From a virus (Duplodnaviria; Caudoviricetes): DNA of 64,000 nt. Under the pieces are notes generated by a model. The model did not search any database. It was given only the letters and a program-made list of their open reading frames with translations, and was not told the origin of the DNA. Every line of letters begins with the position of its first letter. Position 1 is the first letter of the stretch. Shown piece after piece: positions 2,564 through 11,351 of the stretch. The DNA is taken from positions 96,001 to 160,000 of the IMG/VR virus record IMGVR_UViG_3300009671_000009. One strand, written 5' to 3'. Made by a program: the position numbers and the translations under genes.

Positions 2564-3233
2564 ATACACAGTTAAACCAGAAGAAGCGATGGCAATAGCG
2601 GCGAGTACATGCTATCGCTCAGTTCCAAAAGATAAGGTAGTAGAACATTGTATTCTTTCTGGACATGAAGCTATTTCTGAGTTTGGGGATTTTCATTTCT
2701 TGGTTAGCGGCGTTAGCCGCGCATTGACGCATCAGCTAGTGCGACATAGGTTGGCTTCATTTGCTCAGGAATCCCAAAGATATGTAAGCATGGATGAATT
2801 TAATTATGTTGTACCACCATCTGTTCAGAAAGATAATGAGTCGTATGTTAAATTCAAAATGATGATGGACGAAATTCTTAGTTGTTATACAGACTTGCAG
2901 AACAGAGGAATTCCAAATGAAGACGCAAGATTTGTACTTCCGAATGCATGCACTTCGAAAATCAATGTCAAAATGAATTTTAGAGAGATCATGCATGCCT
3001 GTGCAGAACGCGAATGTAGTAGAGCCCAATGGGAAATCCGAGCTCTATTCAAAGAGATTCACAGGCAGGTAGCAGAAGTATCTCCATTCCTTGGAAAGTA
3101 CTTAGGGCCAAAATGTTTTCGCCTTGGATATTGTCCAGAATTACGTGAGTCTTGTGGCCTGAGACCGAGGAAGACAGACCTCTTCGGTGCTTACGAATGG
3201 TGGGTACGACAAGATAAACCTTCACTTAACTAA
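2544..3233 (+). CDS. thyX: FAD-dependent thymidylate synthase ThyX
   Basis: ThyX motif RHRLASFAQESQRY, plus EDARFVLPNA and AQWEIR. TTG start at 2544 after AGGAGG. Confidence 0.95.
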   Translation: MKVELIRYTVKPEEAMAIAASTCYRSVPKDKVVEHCILSGHEAISEFGDFHFLVSGVSRALTHQLVRHRLASFAQESQRYVSMDEFNYVVPPSVQKDNESYVKFKMMMDEILSCYTDLQNRGIPNEDARFVLPNACTSKINVKMNFREIMHACAERECSRAQWEIRALFKEIHRQVAEVSPFLGKYLGPKCFRLGYCPELRESCGLRPRKTDLFGAYEWWVRQDKPSLN

Positions 3234-3255
3234 TAAACGAAAAGGAGGAATTAAA

Positions 3256-4023
3256 ATGAAATCTATCGAATCACTATACACTAACGTTCCATGGTCTAAA
3301 GGGAAAGTAATTCTCATGGCCTATGCAGGATCGATAGCTTATGGAACTAACACACCAACATCTGACATTGATCTGAGAGGTATTTTAATTCCTCCACAAG
3401 ATTTTTATTACGGATTGGACAGTTTCGAAAGCTATCATTCACCTGAAGGGGATCGAACAGAAGACGACGTTGTTGTATATTCGATAAAGAAGTATGCAAA
3501 TCTCGCGCTTCAAAACAATCCTAATGTTCTTGAAATGTTATTCACTAATCCGAAACATTACACAATTTTAAATCGTTTCGGCAGAGAGCTATGCCGTGCC
3601 AGATATAATTTTTTATCAAAGAAAACTTTCAATACATTTAGTGGTTACGCCTTGGCTCAGCTCCATCGAATGACACAAAACGAAGGAAAGCCTACCCATG
3701 GGCAAGGCAACCCTGAACGTCAAAAGATCCGTGAACAATTTGGCTACGATACCAAAGCGGCAATGCATTTGGTTCGACTCATGCGCATGGGCCTTGAGAT
3801 TCTCAGAGATGGAAATCTAATAGTTCATCGGCCTGACGCAGAAGAGTTACTAGACATCAAGAGAGGGAAATATACTCTTCAAGAAATAGTAGAAGAACAC
3901 GATAGACTCTATGAGCAAATGAAGTATTGGAAAGAAGCTTCCGACCTACCTGAAAAGCCAAATAGAGACAAAGTCAATTCGTTCATAATTGAATTAACCA
4001 AGGAGTTCCTAGGAGGTAAGTAA
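3256..4023 (+). CDS. Pol-beta-superfamily nucleotidyltransferase (RlaP/YcgL-like phage family)
   Basis: GSIAYGTNTPTSDIDLRG (GS...DxD), NNPNVLEMLF, GYDTKAAMHLVRL and SDLPEKP. ATG at 3256 after AGGAGG. Confidence 0.88.
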   Translation: MKSIESLYTNVPWSKGKVILMAYAGSIAYGTNTPTSDIDLRGILIPPQDFYYGLDSFESYHSPEGDRTEDDVVVYSIKKYANLALQNNPNVLEMLFTNPKHYTILNRFGRELCRARYNFLSKKTFNTFSGYALAQLHRMTQNEGKPTHGQGNPERQKIREQFGYDTKAAMHLVRLMRMGLEILRDGNLIVHRPDAEELLDIKRGKYTLQEIVEEHDRLYEQMKYWKEASDLPEKPNRDKVNSFIIELTKEFLGGK

Positions 4024-4478
4024 TGGGCAAGTGTCAGTATCATCCATGTCATGATCTGGAAAACATAGACTGTCGCCTGTGTTACTGTCCCTTTTATGAC
4101 TATTGCCAGAAGCTACCTACGCATGAGAGACGCCCACGCGGGGTAGCTGGCTACTGGCTAGACCGATCAAGCTTAGGACTTGAACCTGTCTGGGCTTGTG
4201 AGTTATGCGAAATACCACATATAAGAGATGTAGCTGAATACTATGAAAAGAATAAATCCAGCTACAGCATGGAAGATCTTTTCAATGACTGTATGGACAT
4301 TTACAGTGAAGCCATGTATAGAATTCGTAATGTTGTATTTAGGATAGTAATCAAAACAAAGGGCGGCTGGATGTTCTTAAGGCCGCGGCATAGATCTCAC
4401 GGGTCTGCTACTGCACACCTTAAAGAGATCAGCGCAATACATCCAGAGGCATATATCGAAGAAGTTCCTTATGATTAA
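4023..4478 (+). CDS. cysteine-rich small-domain (zinc-finger-like) protein
   Basis: CQYHPCH...CRLCYCPFY...CELCEIPH pattern. TAATG-coupled to the upstream gene. Confidence 0.7.
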   Translation: MGKCQYHPCHDLENIDCRLCYCPFYDYCQKLPTHERRPRGVAGYWLDRSSLGLEPVWACELCEIPHIRDVAEYYEKNKSSYSMEDLFNDCMDIYSEAMYRIRNVVFRIVIKTKGGWMFLRPRHRSHGSATAHLKEISAIHPEAYIEEVPYD

Positions 4479-4522
4479 TCTGTCTTTATATTTTATATAA
4501 TTCTCCGAAAGGGTGATTTACT

Positions 4523-5623
4523 TTGATTAAGACCGCCAAAGGCGACCGTGTTTTCATTGACATAGAAAATCATTTCATTGAGCGTTTCAATCCGCTCACA
4601 GGATTTTATGTCCGTAGTGGAGTTATCGCAAATAAACAGGACACGGGCGTTGATCCGTTTATGAGATGTGCTCCTGGATTATTAGATATAGGGATAATGG
4701 GTCATTGTACTCATGCCCATTTATGTACAGTCGGATGTTATCAGGGTGGAACAGGTAACTGCAAACCCAACATGACACTAGATAACTACAGAAAGATCAT
4801 TGATCAATCTAAAGAATTCTTGTTCCAAGTAGCTCTGGGTGGTCACGGAGACCCGAACAAGCATGAGAACTTTGGGGAGATCCTTGAATATACTCGTAGC
4901 AACGAAATCGTCCCTAACTACACTACAAGTGGATTTAACTTAACAGACGAAGAAGTTGCACTAACTAAACGTTTTTGCGGAGCTACAGCAGTTTCATGGT
5001 ATCGTCGAGATTACACGTTAGATGCCATTCGTCGATTCCTCGAAGCAGGATGCAAGACGAATATCCACTATGTTCTGGGAAATGACAGTATCGATGAAGC
5101 CATTGAAAGATTAGAGCAAGGTACTTTCCCTGAAGGAATCAATGCTGTCATTTTCCTTTTACATAAGCCTGTAGGCTGTGGAAGACAAGAAAGTGTTCTA
5201 CAACCTGGCGACCCAAAAGTTAAAAAGTTTTTTGAAATCGTAGATACATGCAATTTCAAACACAAGATAGGCTTTGACTCTTGTACTGTCCCAGGATTAA
5301 TTAACAACACCGAACGAATAAATCAGGATAGTTTCGATACCTGCGAGGGCGGCAGACATTCTGCTTACATTACTCCAGACATGATGATGCTTCCGTGTTC
5401 GTTCGACAATCAGAGTTATGCCTGGGCTGTCAGCTTAGATAGTTACACAGTGCAAGAAGCATGGAAAAGCTCAGAGTTCGACAACTTTCGTAGTCATTTC
5501 CGCAATGCATGTTCTGGCTGCAAAGACAGACAGCTATGTATGTCAGGCTGTCCAATCGTTCCCCAAATAGTATTATGTAATAGAGAAGAGCGAACTGAAA
5601 GATGCGCAAAGTTTGTGGTATAG
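4523..5623 (+). CDS. radical SAM enzyme with C-terminal SPASM domain
   Basis: C62-x5-C68-x3-C72-Y cluster motif, GGHGDP (GGE-like) and NYTTSG. SPASM: CEGG...LPCSF and CSGCx5Cx3CP. Confidence 0.9.
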   Translation: MIKTAKGDRVFIDIENHFIERFNPLTGFYVRSGVIANKQDTGVDPFMRCAPGLLDIGIMGHCTHAHLCTVGCYQGGTGNCKPNMTLDNYRKIIDQSKEFLFQVALGGHGDPNKHENFGEILEYTRSNEIVPNYTTSGFNLTDEEVALTKRFCGATAVSWYRRDYTLDAIRRFLEAGCKTNIHYVLGNDSIDEAIERLEQGTFPEGINAVIFLLHKPVGCGRQESVLQPGDPKVKKFFEIVDTCNFKHKIGFDSCTVPGLINNTERINQDSFDTCEGGRHSAYITPDMMMLPCSFDNQSYAWAVSLDSYTVQEAWKSSEFDNFRSHFRNACSGCKDRQLCMSGCPIVPQIVLCNREERTERCAKFVV

Positions 5624-5634
5624 GATACAAAATT

Positions 5635-5698
5635 ATAGAGTCTAAGGCACACAATCTTAGACTCTATGCCGTATGGTACAAACAGATGCCCATCTGTT
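5635..5698 (+). other. two intergenic stem-loops between the radical SAM gene and the motif array
   Basis: Perfect 12-bp stem ATAGAGTCTAAG/CTTAGACTCTAT (5635-5667) and AACAGATG/CATCTGTT (5681-5698). Confidence 0.6.
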
Positions 5699-5744
5699 AG
5701 TGGATGGAAATTCAAATATTGCAATCGAGAGGAGAGGATCGCAT

Positions 5745-5993
5745 ATGAAAGTACGCTCTGATTTCGTAACAAACTCATCTAGCTCTAGCTTTGTGATAGC
5801 CAAATATCTGTTGAGTGAATATCAACTTGATCAATTAGTTGAATATTCTTGCTCTGACAAGAACACTGATGGCTGGAGAATTACACAAGACGACAATTAC
5901 GTCGATGGATTCACTATGATGGATAACGATGCCATTAATGAATTCTTTGATAAAATTGGCATTAAGCCAGAACACGTGAGGTGGGGCGAATGA
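5745..5993 (+). CDS. DFVTNSSSSS-motif protein 1 (82 aa)
   Basis: ATG at 5745 after GAGGAGAGG. Starts MKVRSDFVTNSSSSSFVI. Confidence 0.85.
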   Translation: MKVRSDFVTNSSSSSFVIAKYLLSEYQLDQLVEYSCSDKNTDGWRITQDDNYVDGFTMMDNDAINEFFDKIGIKPEHVRWGE

Positions 5994-6379
5994 AAATACG
6001 ATGTGATTTTGTGACAAACTCTAGCAGTTCTAGCTTTATTATAGCAGTTGATCCTGCAAAGTTTGGAACTACCAAAGATGAATTCGTCAGATGCGTTACT
6101 TTATATGCATCAGTATTTGGGATTAAGCCAGTTATTATAGCCGATAAGGAAAAAGTAGACAATCTCTTTTTACAAGACTGGGGTTGTAAAGATCAGTCAC
6201 TTGAAGAAGTCATTGAAGAAAACGGTCTTGCTGACAGATACAACAATTTTGTTGATGCTATCAATAAAGACATGGTTCTGATAGAACAAGAGATCGAACA
6301 AGGAGATTGCGACAGACCATGGATTCTAGAGAAGGCAGAAAAAGAAGGTCTTCTTAAAGTTCTTGATGGAGAATACTAA
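5990..6379 (+). CDS. DFVTNSSSSS-motif protein 2 (129 aa)
   Basis: ATGA overlap with the previous gene. Starts MKIRCDFVTNSSSSSFII. Confidence 0.85.
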   Translation: MKIRCDFVTNSSSSSFIIAVDPAKFGTTKDEFVRCVTLYASVFGIKPVIIADKEKVDNLFLQDWGCKDQSLEEVIEENGLADRYNNFVDAINKDMVLIEQEIEQGDCDRPWILEKAEKEGLLKVLDGEY

Positions 6380-6711
6380 TGAAAACGAGACTCGATTTTG
6401 TTACTAATTCTAGTAGCTCTAGTTTTATTGTAGCGACTAAGCTCAAAGTACCTTCTGATGAGTCAAAGAAACTCATTAAAGAGGTAGCCTATGCAATGGG
6501 AGCACACGAAATAGCACTGGAACTGGCCGACCTAGAAGAATTTTTTGAAGAAATTTGTGGTTCAAAAGATCGCTGGGGGCTGTACGAAAAGAGAGCTTAT
6601 GAAGAAGCTATAGCGTTAATTTCCCAGGGGAATATCATTTATACCACAAGCATTTCAAGTGACGATCCGACGTATACTCTTCGTGGTCAGGTGCTATACT
6701 GTTATTGTTAA
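6379..6711 (+). CDS. DFVTNSSSSS-motif protein 3 (110 aa)
   Basis: TAATG overlap. Starts MKTRLDFVTNSSSSSFIV. Confidence 0.85.
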   Translation: MKTRLDFVTNSSSSSFIVATKLKVPSDESKKLIKEVAYAMGAHEIALELADLEEFFEEICGSKDRWGLYEKRAYEEAIALISQGNIIYTTSISSDDPTYTLRGQVLYCYC

Positions 6712-6720
6712 GGAGGAAAA

Positions 6721-7053
6721 ATGAAAGTAAGGATTGATTTTGTAACGAATTCTAGCAGCTCTAGTTTTATTATTCTAGGAATGTATGCTAGCGACTGGAA
6801 AGAATTAGGGTTGCCTCTTGAGGAAGAGTCAGATTATGACAGTCCACAAGTAAGCGATGAATTCTTCGAGACAGTTTATGACGGAGATAGTGATACTTAC
6901 TCTATCTCGATCAGTAATCTGGTTAGACAAATGCACAGTCACAGTATTAATGATCTCAAACAAATGTATGTAGATAAAGTTAAAGAACTATACGGTAAGG
7001 AAATTTCTACCAAAGATGTAAGCTTTGACTTTGGAGGATGGTACAATGGCTAA
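6721..7053 (+). CDS. DFVTNSSSSS-motif protein 4 (110 aa)
   Basis: AGGAGG RBS. Starts MKVRIDFVTNSSSSSFII. Confidence 0.85.
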   Translation: MKVRIDFVTNSSSSSFIILGMYASDWKELGLPLEEESDYDSPQVSDEFFETVYDGDSDTYSISISNLVRQMHSHSINDLKQMYVDKVKELYGKEISTKDVSFDFGGWYNG

Positions 7054-7387
7054 GATTAGAACGGACTTTGTCACTAATAGCTCAAGTTCTAGTTTTGTAA
7101 TTGCACTTCGCGAAGATGTAACTGTAGATGACATCAGGGAACTTTTCAACATAGAAGATATCAAAAAGTTCCTTGAGGATTATTACGATGAAGAAAATTA
7201 TACACCAGAAGAAGTTTTAGATGATATTGTGTCTATGCTTATGAGAGATGCCAAACATGGTATTCATCTGGGAAATTGGAAAGTATCTGCCTCAGAATTT
7301 TCCAATGAAGGGGAACCTCATATATCGTATTTCTATGAGAGTGGATATATCGATACTGATAAAATTAAGGTGCGTGGTTTCTATTGA
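7046..7387 (+). CDS. DFVTNSSSSS-motif protein 5 (113 aa)
   Basis: ATG at 7046 after GGAGG. Starts MAKIRTDFVTNSSSSSFVI. Confidence 0.85.
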   Translation: MAKIRTDFVTNSSSSSFVIALREDVTVDDIRELFNIEDIKKFLEDYYDEENYTPEEVLDDIVSMLMRDAKHGIHLGNWKVSASEFSNEGEPHISYFYESGYIDTDKIKVRGFY

Positions 7388-7947
7388 AATACCGTTTAGA
7401 TTTCGTAACAAATTCAAGTTCATCAAGTTATACTTGCGACATCTGTGGACATACCGATTCTGGATGGGACATTAGTGTTTCGGAGTGCAGCATGTTTGAA
7501 TGCGAAGAAGGGCATATACTATGTACCAGACATGCGAAACCCGTTGAGACAGAAAGCCTTCGTGCCTTTCTTACAGAGGAAATAACGAACTCAAAATCCC
7601 AAAGTGAAGCCAGACTAATCTCACCACCAGAAGAAAAACCTTCTTGGTTCAGCGAAAAGAATGAAAGAAGAGATCTAGCTGAGTATATAAAATTGCTAGA
7701 AGAGCTTCCAGCTATGGACAAAAATGACATGATGGAAATAGCACGAGATTGCTATAGCTGGGATTGTGAACGTCCAAGTGCATTTTGTCCACTGTGCCAG
7801 TTAGAGGCTATCTCGTCCGACGATGTGCTTCTATATCTCGCAAAGAAGCACAATGTTTCCAAGGCATCTGTTTTGGCAGAAGTCAAAGAGATGTTCGGCT
7901 CTTACGCTGATTTCAAGAGGTATTTGAGAAATGAAGACAAGAAGTGA
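7384..7947 (+). CDS. DFVTNSSSSS-motif protein 6 with Cys/His metal-binding motifs (187 aa)
   Basis: TTG start overlapping the previous TGA. Starts MKYRLDFVTNSSSSSYTCDIC and has CEEGHILCTRH and CPLC. Confidence 0.85.
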   Translation: MKYRLDFVTNSSSSSYTCDICGHTDSGWDISVSECSMFECEEGHILCTRHAKPVETESLRAFLTEEITNSKSQSEARLISPPEEKPSWFSEKNERRDLAEYIKLLEELPAMDKNDMMEIARDCYSWDCERPSAFCPLCQLEAISSDDVLLYLAKKHNVSKASVLAEVKEMFGSYADFKRYLRNEDKK

Positions 7948-8236
7948 CTTCGTCACCAATTCTAGCTCGTCAAGTTTCATTATTGCCACCAAAGGAAATC
8001 TAACAGAGGCAGAATTTATGGATCGCTTCGGCGTCCCTAAGGAAGAATACGGGTGTACACAAGAAGAAATTGAACAATATTGGGGCAAAATTCTTGATCT
8101 TTTAGATAAAGGATTTATTGTCTCTGAGGGAGACGCTTGGAGTGATGGCGGCGAAATCGAGGCAATGATCTGCAATGCGCCACATCGTATAATCGAAAAA
8201 GACGATTTATATATCGAATTCGGTGGCGGATATTAA
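7931..8236 (+). CDS. DFVTNSSSSS-motif protein 7 (101 aa)
   Basis: Starts MKTRSDFVTNSSSSSFII. Overlaps the previous gene. Confidence 0.85.
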   Translation: MKTRSDFVTNSSSSSFIIATKGNLTEAEFMDRFGVPKEEYGCTQEEIEQYWGKILDLLDKGFIVSEGDAWSDGGEIEAMICNAPHRIIEKDDLYIEFGGGY

Positions 8237-8237
8237 T

Positions 8238-8259
8238 AGGCTGGGGGCAACTCCAGCCT
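8238..8259 (+). terminator. GC-rich GNRA-capped hairpin closing the motif array (terminator or stabiliser)
   Basis: AGGCTGGGG-GCAA-CTCCAGCCT directly after the stop. The U-tract is weak. Confidence 0.5.
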
Positions 8260-8290
8260 TGCTCATTAAACTATAAAGGAGATGTTATAA

Positions 8291-8818
8291 GTGGGTTTAG
8301 ATATGTATCTGTACAAGACTAAGAAAATAAAAGACATGACAAGCCAAGAGTATGAAACAGTTGATGATTTTGTATCCAAGCAAAAACTAACTAGCGACAC
8401 GGATATTGACCTTGAGAAAGAATTGAATATCGCAGGAGCTAACGAGCTTAAGCAATGTATTGATACTAGAGGACAATACATTAGCTGGCAATCTATTTTT
8501 GAAGAAGTTGGATACTGGAGAAAATCAAATCAAATCCATAATTGGTTTGTTGATAATGTCCAAGGTGGCGAAGATGAATGCAGACCGCACCTAGTTTCTA
8601 TTGATGACTTAAAGAAGCTGCGGGATCTTTGCAATCAGGTATTACAAGATCCTTCAAAAGCACCAGAGCTTTTGCCGACATTATCTGGCTTCTTCTTTGG
8701 TGGCACAGAATACGACGAATGGTATTTTAATGATCTCAAAGAAACTATCAATATTATTGACAAAGCACTTGGATCAGTAAGCGAAGAAGATACTTTTGTA
8801 TACCGATCATCCTGGTAA
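8291..8818 (+). CDS. conserved hypothetical phage protein
   Basis: MGLDMYL...YWRKSNQIHNWF...LLPTLSGFFFG...YRSSW, a pattern recalled from phage hypothetical proteins. AAGGAG RBS. Confidence 0.75.
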   Translation: MGLDMYLYKTKKIKDMTSQEYETVDDFVSKQKLTSDTDIDLEKELNIAGANELKQCIDTRGQYISWQSIFEEVGYWRKSNQIHNWFVDNVQGGEDECRPHLVSIDDLKKLRDLCNQVLQDPSKAPELLPTLSGFFFGGTEYDEWYFNDLKETINIIDKALGSVSEEDTFVYRSSW

Positions 8819-8833
8819 GAAAGGCTAACAACA

Positions 8834-9022
8834 ATGGCAAAATTTAGAGTTCCAATTTGGTGGTATGAATTACACAGCTATGATTTCATCATCGAAGCTA
8901 ACGACAAACGCGACGCACAAGAAAGAGCCATGCGTAAATTCCAATCGGGAGATTTCGATCCGAAGAGAACCTTCAGCGATTATGGCGAATACGGCATAGA
9001 CGAAATTACGGAGGTCAAATAG
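8834..9022 (+). CDS. hypothetical protein
   Basis: 62-aa ORF in operon orientation. Confidence 0.6.
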   Translation: MAKFRVPIWWYELHSYDFIIEANDKRDAQERAMRKFQSGDFDPKRTFSDYGEYGIDEITEVK

Positions 9023-9258
9023 TGAAATACGAAGATCTTTCTGAATCACAAAAGGATTTTTGTGCAGAGTTAACTGCGGATTTTGAAGATGAGTTCTATA
9101 TTAATATAGACCGCGCATTATCTTCTGGTGCATTATCAGAAGAGGATATGAAAGAGCTATCTTTCATACAAGCAATTTTTATCATTACTGCAAGATCTTT
9201 CAACACGAGATCTCCGCGAGTGAATTCGATTGTTGACAACTTGCGTAACTTTATCTGA
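9022..9258 (+). CDS. hypothetical protein
   Basis: GTG start coupled to the upstream TAG. GGAGG RBS. Confidence 0.6.
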   Translation: MKYEDLSESQKDFCAELTADFEDEFYINIDRALSSGALSEEDMKELSFIQAIFIITARSFNTRSPRVNSIVDNLRNFI

Positions 9259-9271
9259 AAGGAGATCCCAA

Positions 9272-9403
9272 ATGATCTGTCCAAATTGCAATGCCGACAT
9301 CAATGACTATGAAGTCTACTGTCCTGTATGTGACATCGATCTAACCGAAGTCAATTTCTTTGACGGCGATACTGAGTTGGTTGAGCAAATAGCAGAGGTG
9401 TAA
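9272..9403 (+). CDS. small zinc-ribbon protein (43 aa, not in ORF track)
   Basis: AAGGAG RBS. MICPNCNADINDYEVYCPVCDIDL... (CxxC-x10-CxxC) with an acidic tail. Confidence 0.65.
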   Translation: MICPNCNADINDYEVYCPVCDIDLTEVNFFDGDTELVEQIAEV

Positions 9404-9439
9404 GCCTCTGCCCGCAATTATATATAGAGGTGATTTATA

Positions 9440-10030
9440 ATGGGTTTAAGAGAAGACATCTTAAGTTGCAGAGCTTGCAGTCTATGGGATACATACAAAC
9501 AAAATGTTCCCTTTGAAGGGAACACGGAAGCAGAACTAATGTTTATCGGCAGAGATCCAGGCGATGTGGAAGTTAAGCTCCTTAGACCTTTTGTTGGCCC
9601 AGCAGGGCAAGTATTTCGTCAAGACATACTTGCATCGGTTGGAATACCAGAAAACCAGGTTTATATTTCCAACATAGTATGCTGCCGACCCAGAGGTAAC
9701 GTTGCCACTAGTAGAGATCTGTCATGGCCTTGTGCCGATAGGCATGTCAGAAGAGCCATTGGGGAAATACAACCGAAAGCAATTGTGACACTTGGTAAAG
9801 AAGCAACAGAATATGCACTCGGGTATATAATCCCGTCCATGGGAGGAACTAGAGGTAAGTTGTTGTATTTCAAAGGAACTAAAATACCTGTAATTCCCAC
9901 ATGGCATCCATCATATATACTAAGGCTCCAAAGTATTAACCCAACTGAGGCAGAGCTTCGTAGGACGCAGTCGATAAATGATATACTTACTGCTTTACAG
10001 TATTGCGAAAAGTTACGTAGTATGGTATAA
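9440..10030 (+). CDS. family-4 (Fe-S) uracil-DNA glycosylase-like protein
   Basis: CRAC, IGRDPG, PFVGPAG, NIVCCRP, PCA and WHPSY motifs. Confidence 0.85.
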   Translation: MGLREDILSCRACSLWDTYKQNVPFEGNTEAELMFIGRDPGDVEVKLLRPFVGPAGQVFRQDILASVGIPENQVYISNIVCCRPRGNVATSRDLSWPCADRHVRRAIGEIQPKAIVTLGKEATEYALGYIIPSMGGTRGKLLYFKGTKIPVIPTWHPSYILRLQSINPTEAELRRTQSINDILTALQYCEKLRSMV

Positions 10031-10031
10031 T
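10003..10031 (+). promoter_or_regulatory. SigA/sigma70-type promoter upstream of dam
   Basis: TTGCGA-17 bp-TATAAT with extended -10 (TGn). Confidence 0.7.
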
Positions 10032-10053
10032 ATAGCTATGATGGGAGGGAAAC

Positions 10054-10875
10054 ATGAAACCGTTTTTAAAATGGGCTGGAGGAAAATATAGATTAGTAGA
10101 CCTAATAGTAAAATCTTTAGGTCAAGGAAACCGCCTAATAGAACCTTTCGCTGGCAGCTGTGCTGTTTCATTAAATACTAATTATAACTCATATTGGATT
10201 AATGATGTTAATAATGACTTAATATCTTTGTATTCAATAATTGTGGGAGATGATTCTGGGTTTAATTCTTTGATTAAATGTATCGAACGATGGTTTAATA
10301 ATGGAAATAATCCAGCTACATATTATCAGGCCAGAAATCAATTCAATCAGGAGAAAAATCTTATTGATAAAGCGGCCTTATTTATATATTTAAATAGACA
10401 TTGTTTTAATGGACTGTGTCGTTACAATCTTAAAGGTCAATTTAATGTGCCATTTGGAAAATACAAAACGATTCATTATCCTGTAGAGGAGCTACAAACA
10501 TTCCGTTCTAAGTTACAAAACGCAAAGTTTACCTGTTGTGACTTTAGAGATGTAATGTCTAACGCCGATAAGGGTGATGTGATATATTGTGACCCGCCAT
10601 ATGTTCCTATTAGCAAGACATCAAATTTCACTGCCTATGCACCTGGGATATTTGGCCCTGCAGACCAACGGGACTTAGTTACTTTAGCCGAAGAAGTAAG
10701 TGGACGAGGAATTACGGTTGTCATATCTAATCATTATAATGAAGCAACTAAAGAGCTGTATAAAAATTCAGAAATGATTGTTTTCCCAGTCAACAGATCA
10801 ATTAGTTGTAACGCCAATAACAGACAAGCGGTCGAAGAAATTTTGGCTGTTTATAAACAGGAGGCCAAGACATGA
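10054..10875 (+). CDS. dam: Dam-family (D12 class) N6-adenine DNA methyltransferase
   Basis: LKWAGGK, IEPFAG, FNGLCRYN-GQFNVPFG and DPPY. Confidence 0.92.
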   Translation: MKPFLKWAGGKYRLVDLIVKSLGQGNRLIEPFAGSCAVSLNTNYNSYWINDVNNDLISLYSIIVGDDSGFNSLIKCIERWFNNGNNPATYYQARNQFNQEKNLIDKAALFIYLNRHCFNGLCRYNLKGQFNVPFGKYKTIHYPVEELQTFRSKLQNAKFTCCDFRDVMSNADKGDVIYCDPPYVPISKTSNFTAYAPGIFGPADQRDLVTLAEEVSGRGITVVISNHYNEATKELYKNSEMIVFPVNRSISCNANNRQAVEEILAVYKQEAKT

Positions 10876-11351
10876 ATCAAGGACGAACAGCCAATATGCA
10901 AGGTGCCAATCTAGAAGGAATTGTAATTGACACTATGTGTCGTAAAGGCCTTGCTTTAGTTAATTATGTCGATTGGATTAAACGTCCACAAAAGTATGGC
11001 GAAGAACTTCTTTTAAAGAACGTTCCATATACGTCTATATATGGGCATGAAGGCCGTACGGAATTTAAAATTAAATCTTGCCGATATGGCGAATATAGAA
11101 TTGAATGCAAATGGCAACAAGTCGCTGGAAGCGTAGATGAAAAATTCCCGTATGTTTATTTAAATTGTGTAGAAAGTCTACCAGAAAAAAATATAATTAT
11201 CTTAGTGGATGGTGGTGGAGCCAAAGATGGTGCCGTTCGTTGGCTAAAGAGCGCAGCTGCTAACAAATTATTTATCAAGGATATTGATAAAAATATAAAA
11301 GTAATGGATCTACGTGATTTTATTGTATGGGCAAATACAAATTTTAGGTAG
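10872..11351 (+). CDS. PD-(D/E)xK nuclease, putative restriction partner of Dam
   Basis: ATGA-coupled to dam. TEF...IECKWQQVAGSVDEKFPY. Confidence 0.65.
   Translation: MNQGRTANMQGANLEGIVIDTMCRKGLALVNYVDWIKRPQKYGEELLLKNVPYTSIYGHEGRTEFKIKSCRYGEYRIECKWQQVAGSVDEKFPYVYLNCVESLPEKNIIILVDGGGAKDGAVRWLKSAAANKLFIKDIDKNIKVMDLRDFIVWANTNFR

Follow-up and report, generated by a model that had tools for sequence, protein, structure and literature searches.

A phage radical SAM/SPASM enzyme encoded beside an array of N-terminally tagged proteins: a putative tag-directed protein-maturation system

Background

Radical S-adenosylmethionine (SAM) enzymes carrying a SPASM domain are known to mature peptides and a small number of dedicated proteins (sulfatases, QhpC, HxsA). 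We analysed a 64,000-nucleotide stretch of phage DNA, hereafter the window, which covers positions 96001-160000 of a phage genome that is complete at 224,466 bp and carries direct terminal repeats (IMG/VR record IMGVR_UViG_3300009671_000009) and in which a gene for a radical SAM/SPASM enzyme is followed by seven small genes whose products share a 16-residue N-terminal tag. The pair is present at thousands of loci in phages and bacteria, cultured coliphage RB16 among them. In viral and bacterial genomes tag and enzyme are almost never apart, and sequences and structural models suggest that together they are probably an unrecognised system that chemically modifies whole proteins.

Anaerobic sulfatase-maturating enzymes (anSME, including AtsB and anSMEcpe) resemble the enzyme of this locus in being SPASM radical SAM proteins that act on whole proteins at a short Ser/Cys motif with no leader removal or export, and anSMEcpe is among its best structural matches. 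Identity is only ~14%, however, and no anSME model of NCBIfam was matched. Neither a sulfatase nor the (C/S)xPxR motif was found in the window or in related loci, the tag forms the very N-terminus of small proteins that are numerous and unrelated, and residues are inserted in the cluster motif of the enzyme. The SPASM maturases of peptides that are made on the ribosome and modified after translation (RiPPs), namely SuiB (with SuiA, streptide), SkfB, CteB and ChlB, are likewise among the best structural matches, and they share with this locus the arrangement of several co-encoded substrates per enzyme with a common conserved N-terminal recognition sequence. In contrast to RiPP precursors, the conserved part here comprises ~16 residues and the variable part is a folded domain of 80-790 amino acids (aa) rather than a short core; no RRE domain match, leader protease or transporter was found here, and most members are phage-encoded. 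Triceptide synthases follow an aromatic-X-X rule for their substrate motif (PMC11499958). The (F/Y/H)-V-(T/S) at tag positions 7-9 fits such a motif, and ChlB is a structural match of the enzyme, although not its best.

The HXS system also resembles this locus, in that a radical SAM-modified whole-protein effector with Ser-containing motifs acts in phage-bacterium conflict (PMC13128918). HXS is defined by HxsA with its His-Xaa-Ser repeats, two radical SAM enzymes (HxsB and HxsC) and HxsD (PMC13128918), whereas the present locus encodes one radical SAM enzyme and has no HxS repeats, HxsD, signal peptide or peptidoglycan-binding domain, nor any match to the Hxs models of NCBIfam or PADLOC.

A radical SAM/SPASM maturase with co-encoded substrates is thus known in kind. 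What is new is that many unrelated folded proteins bear one portable N-terminal tag of 16 residues and that, as far as the sequences indicate, one enzyme has up to ten putative substrates per genome; the mainly phage-borne distribution and the variable length of the cluster-binding loop are new as well. Our literature searches on the tag string, on radical SAM enzymes in phage anti-defence or defence islands and on phages RB16, RB43 and KP15 returned no description of the tag or of the pair, and public annotations of the relatives read 'hypothetical protein' or 'putative radical SAM protein'. A 'grasp-with-SPASM' of an integrative and conjugative element (ICE) of P. gingivalis, met in the literature, is unrelated.

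Results and discussion

A conserved tag heads seven consecutive gene products

The initial annotation of the window had described seven closely spaced or overlapping open reading frames (ORFs) of 82-187 aa, all bearing the tag, after a radical SAM/SPASM gene. Our analysis placed all eight ORFs at the same coordinates (enzyme gene, 4523-5623; tag genes, 5745-8236), all on the + strand, and confirmed that the tag is invariant. Each of the seven products starts M-K-x-R-x-D-F-V-T-N-S-S-S-S-S-(F/Y), and in their alignment M1, K2, R4, D6, F7, V8, T9, N10 and S11-S15 do not vary. Codons at a given tag position differ between the copies, Ser being written with either TCN or AGY and Arg with either CGN or AGR. 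Mean nucleotide identity over the tag is 66%, so that it is the protein that is conserved, and a DNA repeat or recent duplication is not the cause. Run against 1.84 billion representatives, a profile built from the seven proteins retrieved 7,867 clusters (50% identity) at E <= 1e-3, and since the same 16 residues head all of these clusters the tag cannot be a product of chance. Asn stands exactly at residue 10 in 142 of the 147 top cluster representatives, and position 7 is F, Y or H in >99% of cases.

A radical SAM/SPASM enzyme outside the named families

The 366-aa product of 4523-5623, a putative tag-directed maturase, matches the Pfam SPASM model (PF13186) with 24.7 bits against a cut-off of 21.5 (E 3e-5), and its score of 26.3 with TIGR04085 (SPASM) falls narrowly below the cut-off of 27. 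The Pfam Radical_SAM model (PF04055) left it unmatched at E <= 1, probably because residues inserted in the cluster loop break the match to this model. Its cluster motif reads C62-x5-C68-x3-C72 and is followed by Tyr. The GGxGDP motif for SAM binding, of the GGE type, is conserved, with an invariant A-L-G-G-x-G, as are eight C-terminal Cys residues (C254, C274, C292, C330, C333, C339, C343 and C352), which by number would be enough for two auxiliary clusters and include the Cx2Cx5Cx3C of SPASM domains. Among PHROGs families the enzyme belongs to phrog_7293 (4e-25), to which no function is assigned.

Aligned relatives from 25 loci form two clades. In the clade of the window enzyme the SPASM domain is complete and the cluster motif carries extra residues (Cx5Cx3C in the window, Cx7Cx6C in most members); its sister, the short clade, carries the canonical Cx3Cx2C-Tyr in the same alignment columns and ends in a truncated, twitch-like C-terminus. 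Residue 4 of the tag varies with the clade of the accompanying enzyme, being R in 291 of 295 tag proteins that occur with the full-SPASM clade and K in 29 of 30 that occur with the short canonical clade, a pattern compatible with co-evolution, with the counts not being phylogenetically independent.

An AlphaFold (AF2) model of the enzyme, with a mean predicted local distance difference test score (pLDDT) of 93.4, consists of alternating strands and helices, in keeping with the partial TIM barrel at the core of radical SAM enzymes. Its best Foldseek matches are SuiB, anSMEcpe, PqqE, SkfB, CteB, ChlB and TigE, at E values of 6e-13 to 2e-8 (SuiB 6e-13, anSMEcpe 3e-10, ChlB 1.5e-8) and ~14% identity, and all of these best matches are peptide or protein maturases. 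In total 150 PDB matches were obtained at E <= 1e-3 and at least 500 at E <= 10, and among the matches listed all those at E <= 7e-6 are radical SAM enzymes. Sequence and predicted structure together indicate that the enzyme is a genuine radical SAM/SPASM protein of the peptide- or protein-modifying structural class, outside all named families.

NCBIfam models gave weak, partial matches to several SPASM maturases (tungsten-cofactor maturase, MftC, PqqE, NirJ), all far under the family cut-offs. These matches, and the presence of PqqE among the best structural matches, could also suit a reading in which the tag proteins are consumed scaffolds: the enzyme would make a small molecule or cofactor from the N-terminal peptide, in the style of PqqA/PqqE or MftA/MftC, which would then be released, the body serving as carrier or chaperone. 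In the mycofactocin and pyrroloquinoline quinone (PQQ) pathways a SPASM enzyme similarly acts on a co-encoded ribosomal product; the tag is predicted to be a free tail, and many tag proteins end in G-x-Y or L-x-Y, recalling the C-terminus of MftA. However, the scores are remote from the cut-offs (26 against 265 bits for the MftC model TIGR03962, 24 against 381 bits for the PqqE model), there is no MftB- or PqqD-like partner here, and no peptidase or further tailoring enzyme is co-conserved. The tag proteins are moreover folded, and they conserve the N-terminus but not a C-terminal core, their C-termini being varied where the mycofactocin precursor ends GVY, and seven different conserved bodies would be pointless for carrying one identical peptide. 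We therefore regard consumption of the tag proteins as scaffolds as quite unlikely. A C-terminal GxY as a glycyl-radical-like or MftA-like site was also dropped as a general feature, since the endings differ between body families.

Two relatives of the enzyme gene are associated with selfish elements. In one related phage the radical SAM gene is interrupted by an intein carrying a LAGLIDADG endonuclease, giving a 783-aa product (L001, 7312-9663), and in another a 324-aa homing-endonuclease-like gene lies between the enzyme gene and the tag array (L005, 8262-9236). Selfish elements usually home into conserved, important phage genes.

Tag and enzyme occur together

Every contig that was found through its tag proteins and had enough flanking sequence carries the enzyme gene immediately upstream of the array. 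When loci were seeded with tag proteins, the enzyme lay no more than 10 kb away in 72 of the 80 bacterial loci and in 58 of the 77 viral ones, and three of the viral loci with no enzyme inside that distance (L052, L053 and L058) have it ~25 kb away on the same contig. When viral loci were instead seeded with the enzyme, no fewer than 20 of the 31 had tag genes within 8 kb; 19 of these fitted the strict pattern, and L025 was added on inspection. In phage loci the tag genes lie downstream of the enzyme and number three at the median, whereas in bacterial loci the median is one, located upstream of the enzyme with ~40 nucleotides (nt) between them.

Whole genomes gave the same picture. In an even species sample of 301 Lachnospiraceae genomes the tag was detected in five and the enzyme in seven, and in all five genomes with the tag the enzyme adjoins it (Fisher p = 1e-9). 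As for the two genomes with the enzyme only, one (G244) encodes a 789-aa variant-tag protein beside it and the other has only a gene fragment. Among 50,697 cultured-phage records a distant relative of the enzyme (26-28% identity) was present in 171 and a tag protein of the RB16p111 type in 175, with near-identical genus counts for the two genes (Klebsiella, Enterobacter, Cronobacter, Citrobacter, Escherichia). In Escherichia phage RB16 (HM134276.1) the enzyme relative RB16p156 (90403-91557, cluster motif Cx7Cx2C) is encoded 20 kb from the tag protein RB16p111 (70488-71000), which starts MKIRSGFVSNSSSSSF... and ends SKSHH. A degenerate DNA pattern for the tag performed no better than a control in RB16. 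RB16p111 lies two genes from RB16p109, a protein with a von Willebrand factor A (vWA) domain. The initial annotation had asked whether the motif proteins might occur independently of the enzyme; the coupling held in the viral, bacterial, Lachnospiraceae and cultured-phage sets alike.

This distribution bears on the proposal that the tag is a sorting signal, either for capsid targeting or for secretion or injection, and that its adjacency to the enzyme gene is only synteny. The internal proteins of T4 are small, polymorphic and arranged in tandem, and all that they have in common is a short N-terminal capsid-targeting sequence. The tag arrays resemble them as tandem, highly diverse small proteins of large phages with only a short common N-terminus, and the arrays sit in variable regions. 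Unlike the internal proteins, the tag also occurs in two-gene cassettes in bacterial chromosomes with no virion genes around, tracks the radical SAM enzyme, and shows no prohead-protease site or link to the virion. Co-occurrence in whole genomes persists even where the genes are 20-25 kb apart, residue 4 of the tag covaries with the enzyme clade, and the tag is hydrophilic and has no linked exporter. Sorting thus appears an extremely improbable explanation.

Tag proteins have distinct bodies

Beyond the tag the seven proteins of the window have little in common, their bodies aligning at 25-44% identity at best. All are acidic (isoelectric point 4.3-4.9, net charge -5 to -12) and none contains a hydrophobic or membrane-like segment. 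Scans with Pfam and NCBIfam models gave only chance-level matches for the seven. In a sample of 371 distinct tag proteins from all fetched loci the median length is 131 aa and 96% are acidic; when the tag is removed the bodies fall into at least 50 BLAST components, with 13 families of five or more members. Comparison of these 13 families with hhalign linked one pair at 93% probability and one other marginally at 36%. No two of the seven window proteins share a body family, and the array therefore consists of individually conserved, distinct proteins with a portable tag and not of recent paralogues.

Tag protein 1 (5745-5993, 82 aa) belongs to body family 2, and tag protein 2 (5990-6379, 129 aa, C-terminus ...DGEY) to family 0, which is also the family of the single-copy partner in bacterial cassettes. 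Tag protein 3 (6379-6711, 110 aa) and tag protein 7 (7931-8236, 101 aa, C-terminus ...GGGY) have bodies that are singletons in the sample. Tag protein 4 (6721-7053, 110 aa) falls into family 12 and tag protein 5 (7046-7387, 113 aa), which we modelled with AF2, into family 3. Tag protein 6 (7384-7947, 187 aa), of family 4, uses a TTG start and has nine Cys residues, with a CDICG... motif; proteins of its type are conserved as the final array member in other phages.

A search with tag protein 5 recovered 42 metagenomic relatives that span its full length (30-43% identity) and all lack a name, and their alignment was used for an AlphaFold model with a pLDDT of 88.6. In this model residues 1-8 are disordered and 9-13 form a coil, S14-R22 make up strand 1 of a beta-alpha-beta-beta-alpha-beta domain, and strand 1 and the last strand lie in one sheet. 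The predicted tag is thus a free N-terminal tail (K-x-R-x-D-F-V-T-N-S-S) that runs into strand 1 (S-S-S-F-V-I-A). Neither the sequence profile of this protein against the PDB nor Foldseek at E <= 1e-3 gave a match, exhaustive structural alignment (VIA-align wide) reached a best Z of 3.7 with weak ACT-, ClpS- and NikR-like rows, and in the ESM Atlas a tag protein met only viral hypothetical clusters, although blank fold searches of this kind do not prove a new fold. The initial annotation had allowed that the motif might simply be a strand of a known fold. In the model the first 8-13 residues are a free tail, only SSSF(V/I)(I/V)A forms strand 1, and the fold is unmatched. Its description of the variable parts as protein-sized domains, with no protease or transporter adjacent, was likewise borne out by library scans and the model: no protease or transporter gene adjoins the enzyme-tag block in the Pfam scan of its neighbourhood.

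The C-termini of tag proteins are also biased. Across the 371 proteins the last residue is Tyr in 22%, Gly in 20% and His in 14% (56% together), against a Lys/Leu/Ile-rich background in neighbouring ORFs in which G accounts for 5.7% and Y and H each for less. The endings are specific to body families (LSY/LDY, SHH, HMG, RDG, GGY, YCD), and those in the window include DGEY, VRGFY, GGGY and GGWYNG. This bias to endings containing His, Tyr, Gly or Cys (SHH, HMG, GGY, YCD), the sharing of one sheet by strand 1 and the last strand in the model, and the wealth of oxygen ligands in a Thr-Asn-Ser5 run preceded by Asp would all suit an intrinsic metal-, phosphate- or nucleotide-binding loop formed by the tag with conserved C-terminal residues, for which the enzyme would supply or repair the cofactor and leave the polypeptide unmodified. 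Residues 1-8 are predicted to be disordered and to lie outside any pocket, however, bodies unrelated in sequence would hardly form the same pocket, and no known binding fold was matched, so that we consider a shared ligand-binding loop very unlikely.

The combination of diverse bodies with a constant tag also follows the logic of interchangeable specificity subunits. The tag proteins could accordingly be adaptors or regulators that dock through the tag and steer the enzyme to nucleic acids, nucleotides or host proteins, each body picking its target. The location of the locus among DNA and RNA metabolism genes (ThyX, RlaP nucleotidyltransferase, uracil-DNA glycosylase (UDG) and Dam) and the BRCT domain of one long member would fit with this. 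Against such steering, the closest structural relatives of the enzyme all act on the peptide or protein that they bind, the tag-then-enzyme order with tight spacing is the pattern of a precursor and its maturase, and an invariant 16-residue docking peptide with five Ser residues would be unusual for a purely structural contact. We judge an adaptor role unlikely, and prefer to see the tag proteins as substrates.

Two long members stand apart from the small proteins. A 668-aa tag protein (L182, 1301-3304) contains the BRCT domain (7e-9). A 789-aa protein (L203, 853-3216, - strand) with a variant of the tag (MKKRLGFVTNSSSSNS; ...FVTNSSSSNS) and no Pfam domain adjoins the enzyme in a Lachnospiraceae genome.

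A putative tag-directed maturation system

Taken together, the sequences and models make it fairly likely, in our estimation, that the locus encodes a tag-directed protein-maturation system in which one radical SAM/SPASM enzyme modifies many co-encoded tagged proteins. The free tail M-K-x-R-x-D-(F/Y/H)-V-T-N-S-S-S would be recognised by the enzyme and would enter the lateral opening of the SPASM enzyme, where 5'-deoxyadenosyl-radical chemistry would modify one or more residues in the tail or at the start of strand 1. The acidic body would remain folded outside the active site and give each protein its specificity. The same chemical feature would in this way be placed on seven unrelated proteins in the window, on a median of three in other phages and on one in a bacterial cassette. 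The chemistry could be oxidation of Ser at C-beta to formylglycine, as by anSME (-2 Da each), formation of an aromatic-to-C-beta cyclophane within (F/Y/H)7-V8-(T/S)9 (-2 Da) or an ether cross-link of Ser/Thr (-2 Da); epimerisation (0 Da) and cleavage are further candidates. The Ser run may be the modified site or only a recognition element. The initial annotation had proposed that one enzyme matures the whole Asn-Ser5-tagged family; of this, the coupling stands and the tag is not a strand of a known fold, while we infer the status of the tag proteins as substrates, with the modified site within residues ~7-13.

Several observations weigh against this interpretation. Eleven of the 31 enzyme-seeded viral loci have no tag gene within 8 kb, all of them of the short clade; these tag-less loci are uninformative rather than contrary, the four checkable records being 4-17% complete. 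The second half of the tag forms a structural strand of the body in the model, so that its conservation could be partly structural. No single one of the proposed chemistries explains the invariance of all five Ser residues. The Y/G/H bias at the C-terminus may hint at a second functional site, perhaps near strand 1, for which the proposed mechanism has no use. Finally, genomic context does not separate defence, counter-defence, host takeover or another role.

One enzyme family appears to serve ~7,900 clusters (50% identity) of unrelated folded proteins through a near-invariant tag. If tag-directed maturation is correct, the post-translational modification would be a new one, and protein engineering could borrow its 16-residue recognition tag as a handle. 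Thousands of small acidic proteins that are now hypothetical would also gain an assignment in large phages, among them therapeutic-candidate Klebsiella phages and the classical coliphages RB16 and RB43.

Bacterial cassettes and a possible role in conflict

Most carriers of the bacterial cassettes are strict anaerobes, among them Lachnospiraceae, Erysipelotrichaceae, Selenomonadaceae, Oscillospiraceae and Desulfovibrionaceae. The initial annotation had considered a phage system; the system is mainly phage-borne, but it is not phage-specific, as the one-tag cassette is common in anaerobic bacteria. In Butyrivibrio the cassette has a type II restriction-modification system as a neighbour, together with PIN and Schlafen-like helicase genes and with genes for a PIF1 helicase and the coupling protein of an ICE. 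The cassette of Lachnospiraceae NK4A144 lies beside a type I-E CRISPR-Cas (clustered regularly interspaced short palindromic repeats and associated proteins) operon, one in Clostridium beside TnpB and an S24 repressor, and one in a metagenome-assembled genome beside a type I/IIG restriction-modification system and PIN genes. Among 102 ORFs from 17 non-redundant loci (within L118-L188) the commonest neighbours are AAA-ATPase_like (PF09820)/PDDEXK_9 (PF08011) proteins, with nine, and HTH_3 proteins, with six; behind the former association there may be a common variable region rather than a common function. No peptidase, further tailoring enzyme or transporter is co-conserved with the system. PADLOC-DB 2.0 gave no credible defence-model match for the enzyme or the tag proteins, the sole match being a marginal one of PDLC03405 (type II restriction enzyme) to the bacterial tag protein of L157 over ~40 residues (E 0.004, 14.7 bits).

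Because phages hold diverse tagged arrays in early or DNA-metabolism regions and the bacterial cassettes adjoin restriction-modification systems, CRISPR-Cas and an ICE, a role in conflict between phages or mobile elements and their hosts seems most likely from the gene content. A defence role is as open as counter-defence, since the one-tag cassette is common in anaerobic bacteria beside these same systems. HxsA, the radical SAM-matured effector of HXS, is a precedent for a radical SAM-modified whole protein in phage conflict (PMC13128918). Given such neighbours, tag-directed maturation would, if correct, probably add a new layer to phage-host or mobile-element conflict. A more specific idea, which we put forward tentatively and hold to be rather doubtful, is that a reactive or cross-linked group (a formylglycine-type aldehyde or a cyclophane) on the portable 16-residue tag would act as a common warhead or handle that the unrelated bodies aim at different targets, the phage arrays being directed against host functions and the single copies serving in bacterial or ICE immunity or counter-immunity. 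Were this so, the tag proteins would form a new class of post-translationally armed conflict proteins bearing a new protein-derived functional group.

Some bacterial cassettes are decayed. In Schaedlerella arabinosiphila the tag gene is cut to 26 codons and overlaps the enzyme gene; elsewhere we found one rearranged fusion and one enzyme gene with two in-frame stops. The loci concerned are L178 (~9990-11230), L177 (~10000-11180) and G055:C4 (124430-125494). L177 and L178 had been considered as forms with a short peptide and an enzyme, a reading that was rejected as both are decayed cassettes. Some lineages are thus losing the cassette, which is evidently dispensable.

Organisation of the locus and its surroundings

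In the window a 121-nt spacer separates the enzyme gene from the first tag gene. Within the array neighbouring genes overlap by 1-17 nt or stand no more than 9 nt apart, and most of the seven have recognisable ribosome-binding sites. The spacer contains two stem-loops on the + strand (5634-5668, with a 14-bp stem, and 5681-5698, with a 7-bp stem; -24.9 kcal/mol, z -4.1), downstream of which there is a strong ribosome-binding site (GAGAGGAGAGGA). A terminator-like stem-loop on the same strand closes the block at 8238-8259 (9-bp stem, weak U tract, -16.8 kcal/mol, z -3.3). Both of the bounding hairpins reported by the initial annotation are therefore real. Identical contig pieces from RNA libraries of four bioreactor studies span 3000-8207, with none in 8208-9500. 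The library runs were picked by this stretch and contigs cannot prove transcription or an RNA end, so that their agreement with expression of the block and an end near the 8238-8259 hairpin is a weak hint. Identical contig pieces of window positions 3000-9500 were also present in DNA from sludge, wastewater, landfill, manure and digester samples, and the phage or its close relatives appear to have a wide distribution across engineered systems of the anaerobic or wastewater kind. A megablast search with the block gave no DNA match among cultured phages.

The block is surrounded by early-type genes of DNA and RNA metabolism. Its upstream side carries genes for an SbcC-like protein, for DUF7352 and ThyX, for an RlaP nucleotidyltransferase and for a Cys-rich protein of PF04071; the downstream side carries unassigned genes as well as those for a family-4-like UDG, a Dam methylase and a PD-(D/E)XK protein. 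The RlaP-family gene (3253-4020, Pfam 2.9e-25) lies just upstream of the block, and its relatives occur near tag or enzyme genes in several viral lineages, adjoining them in L013 and 1-4 kb away in L023, L024 and the L051-L065 group. None accompanies the bacterial cassettes, and for this reason RlaP was not counted as a part of the system. Its recurrence could stem from synteny in large phages, or from a functional link of a looser sort. The PF04071 'zf-like' Cys-rich protein (4023-4478, 151 aa, 1.4e-9) is encoded directly upstream of the radical SAM gene, its gene being coupled by ATGA to that of RlaP; it was rejected as a part of the system, as it was found near the system in no other fetched locus. 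Further downstream, beyond the UDG-superfamily gene (9440-10027), a Dam-type (D12 class) methyltransferase gene is coupled to a gene of the PDDEXK_11 nuclease superfamily (10054-11348), and the two may form a phage-borne modification and nuclease pair.

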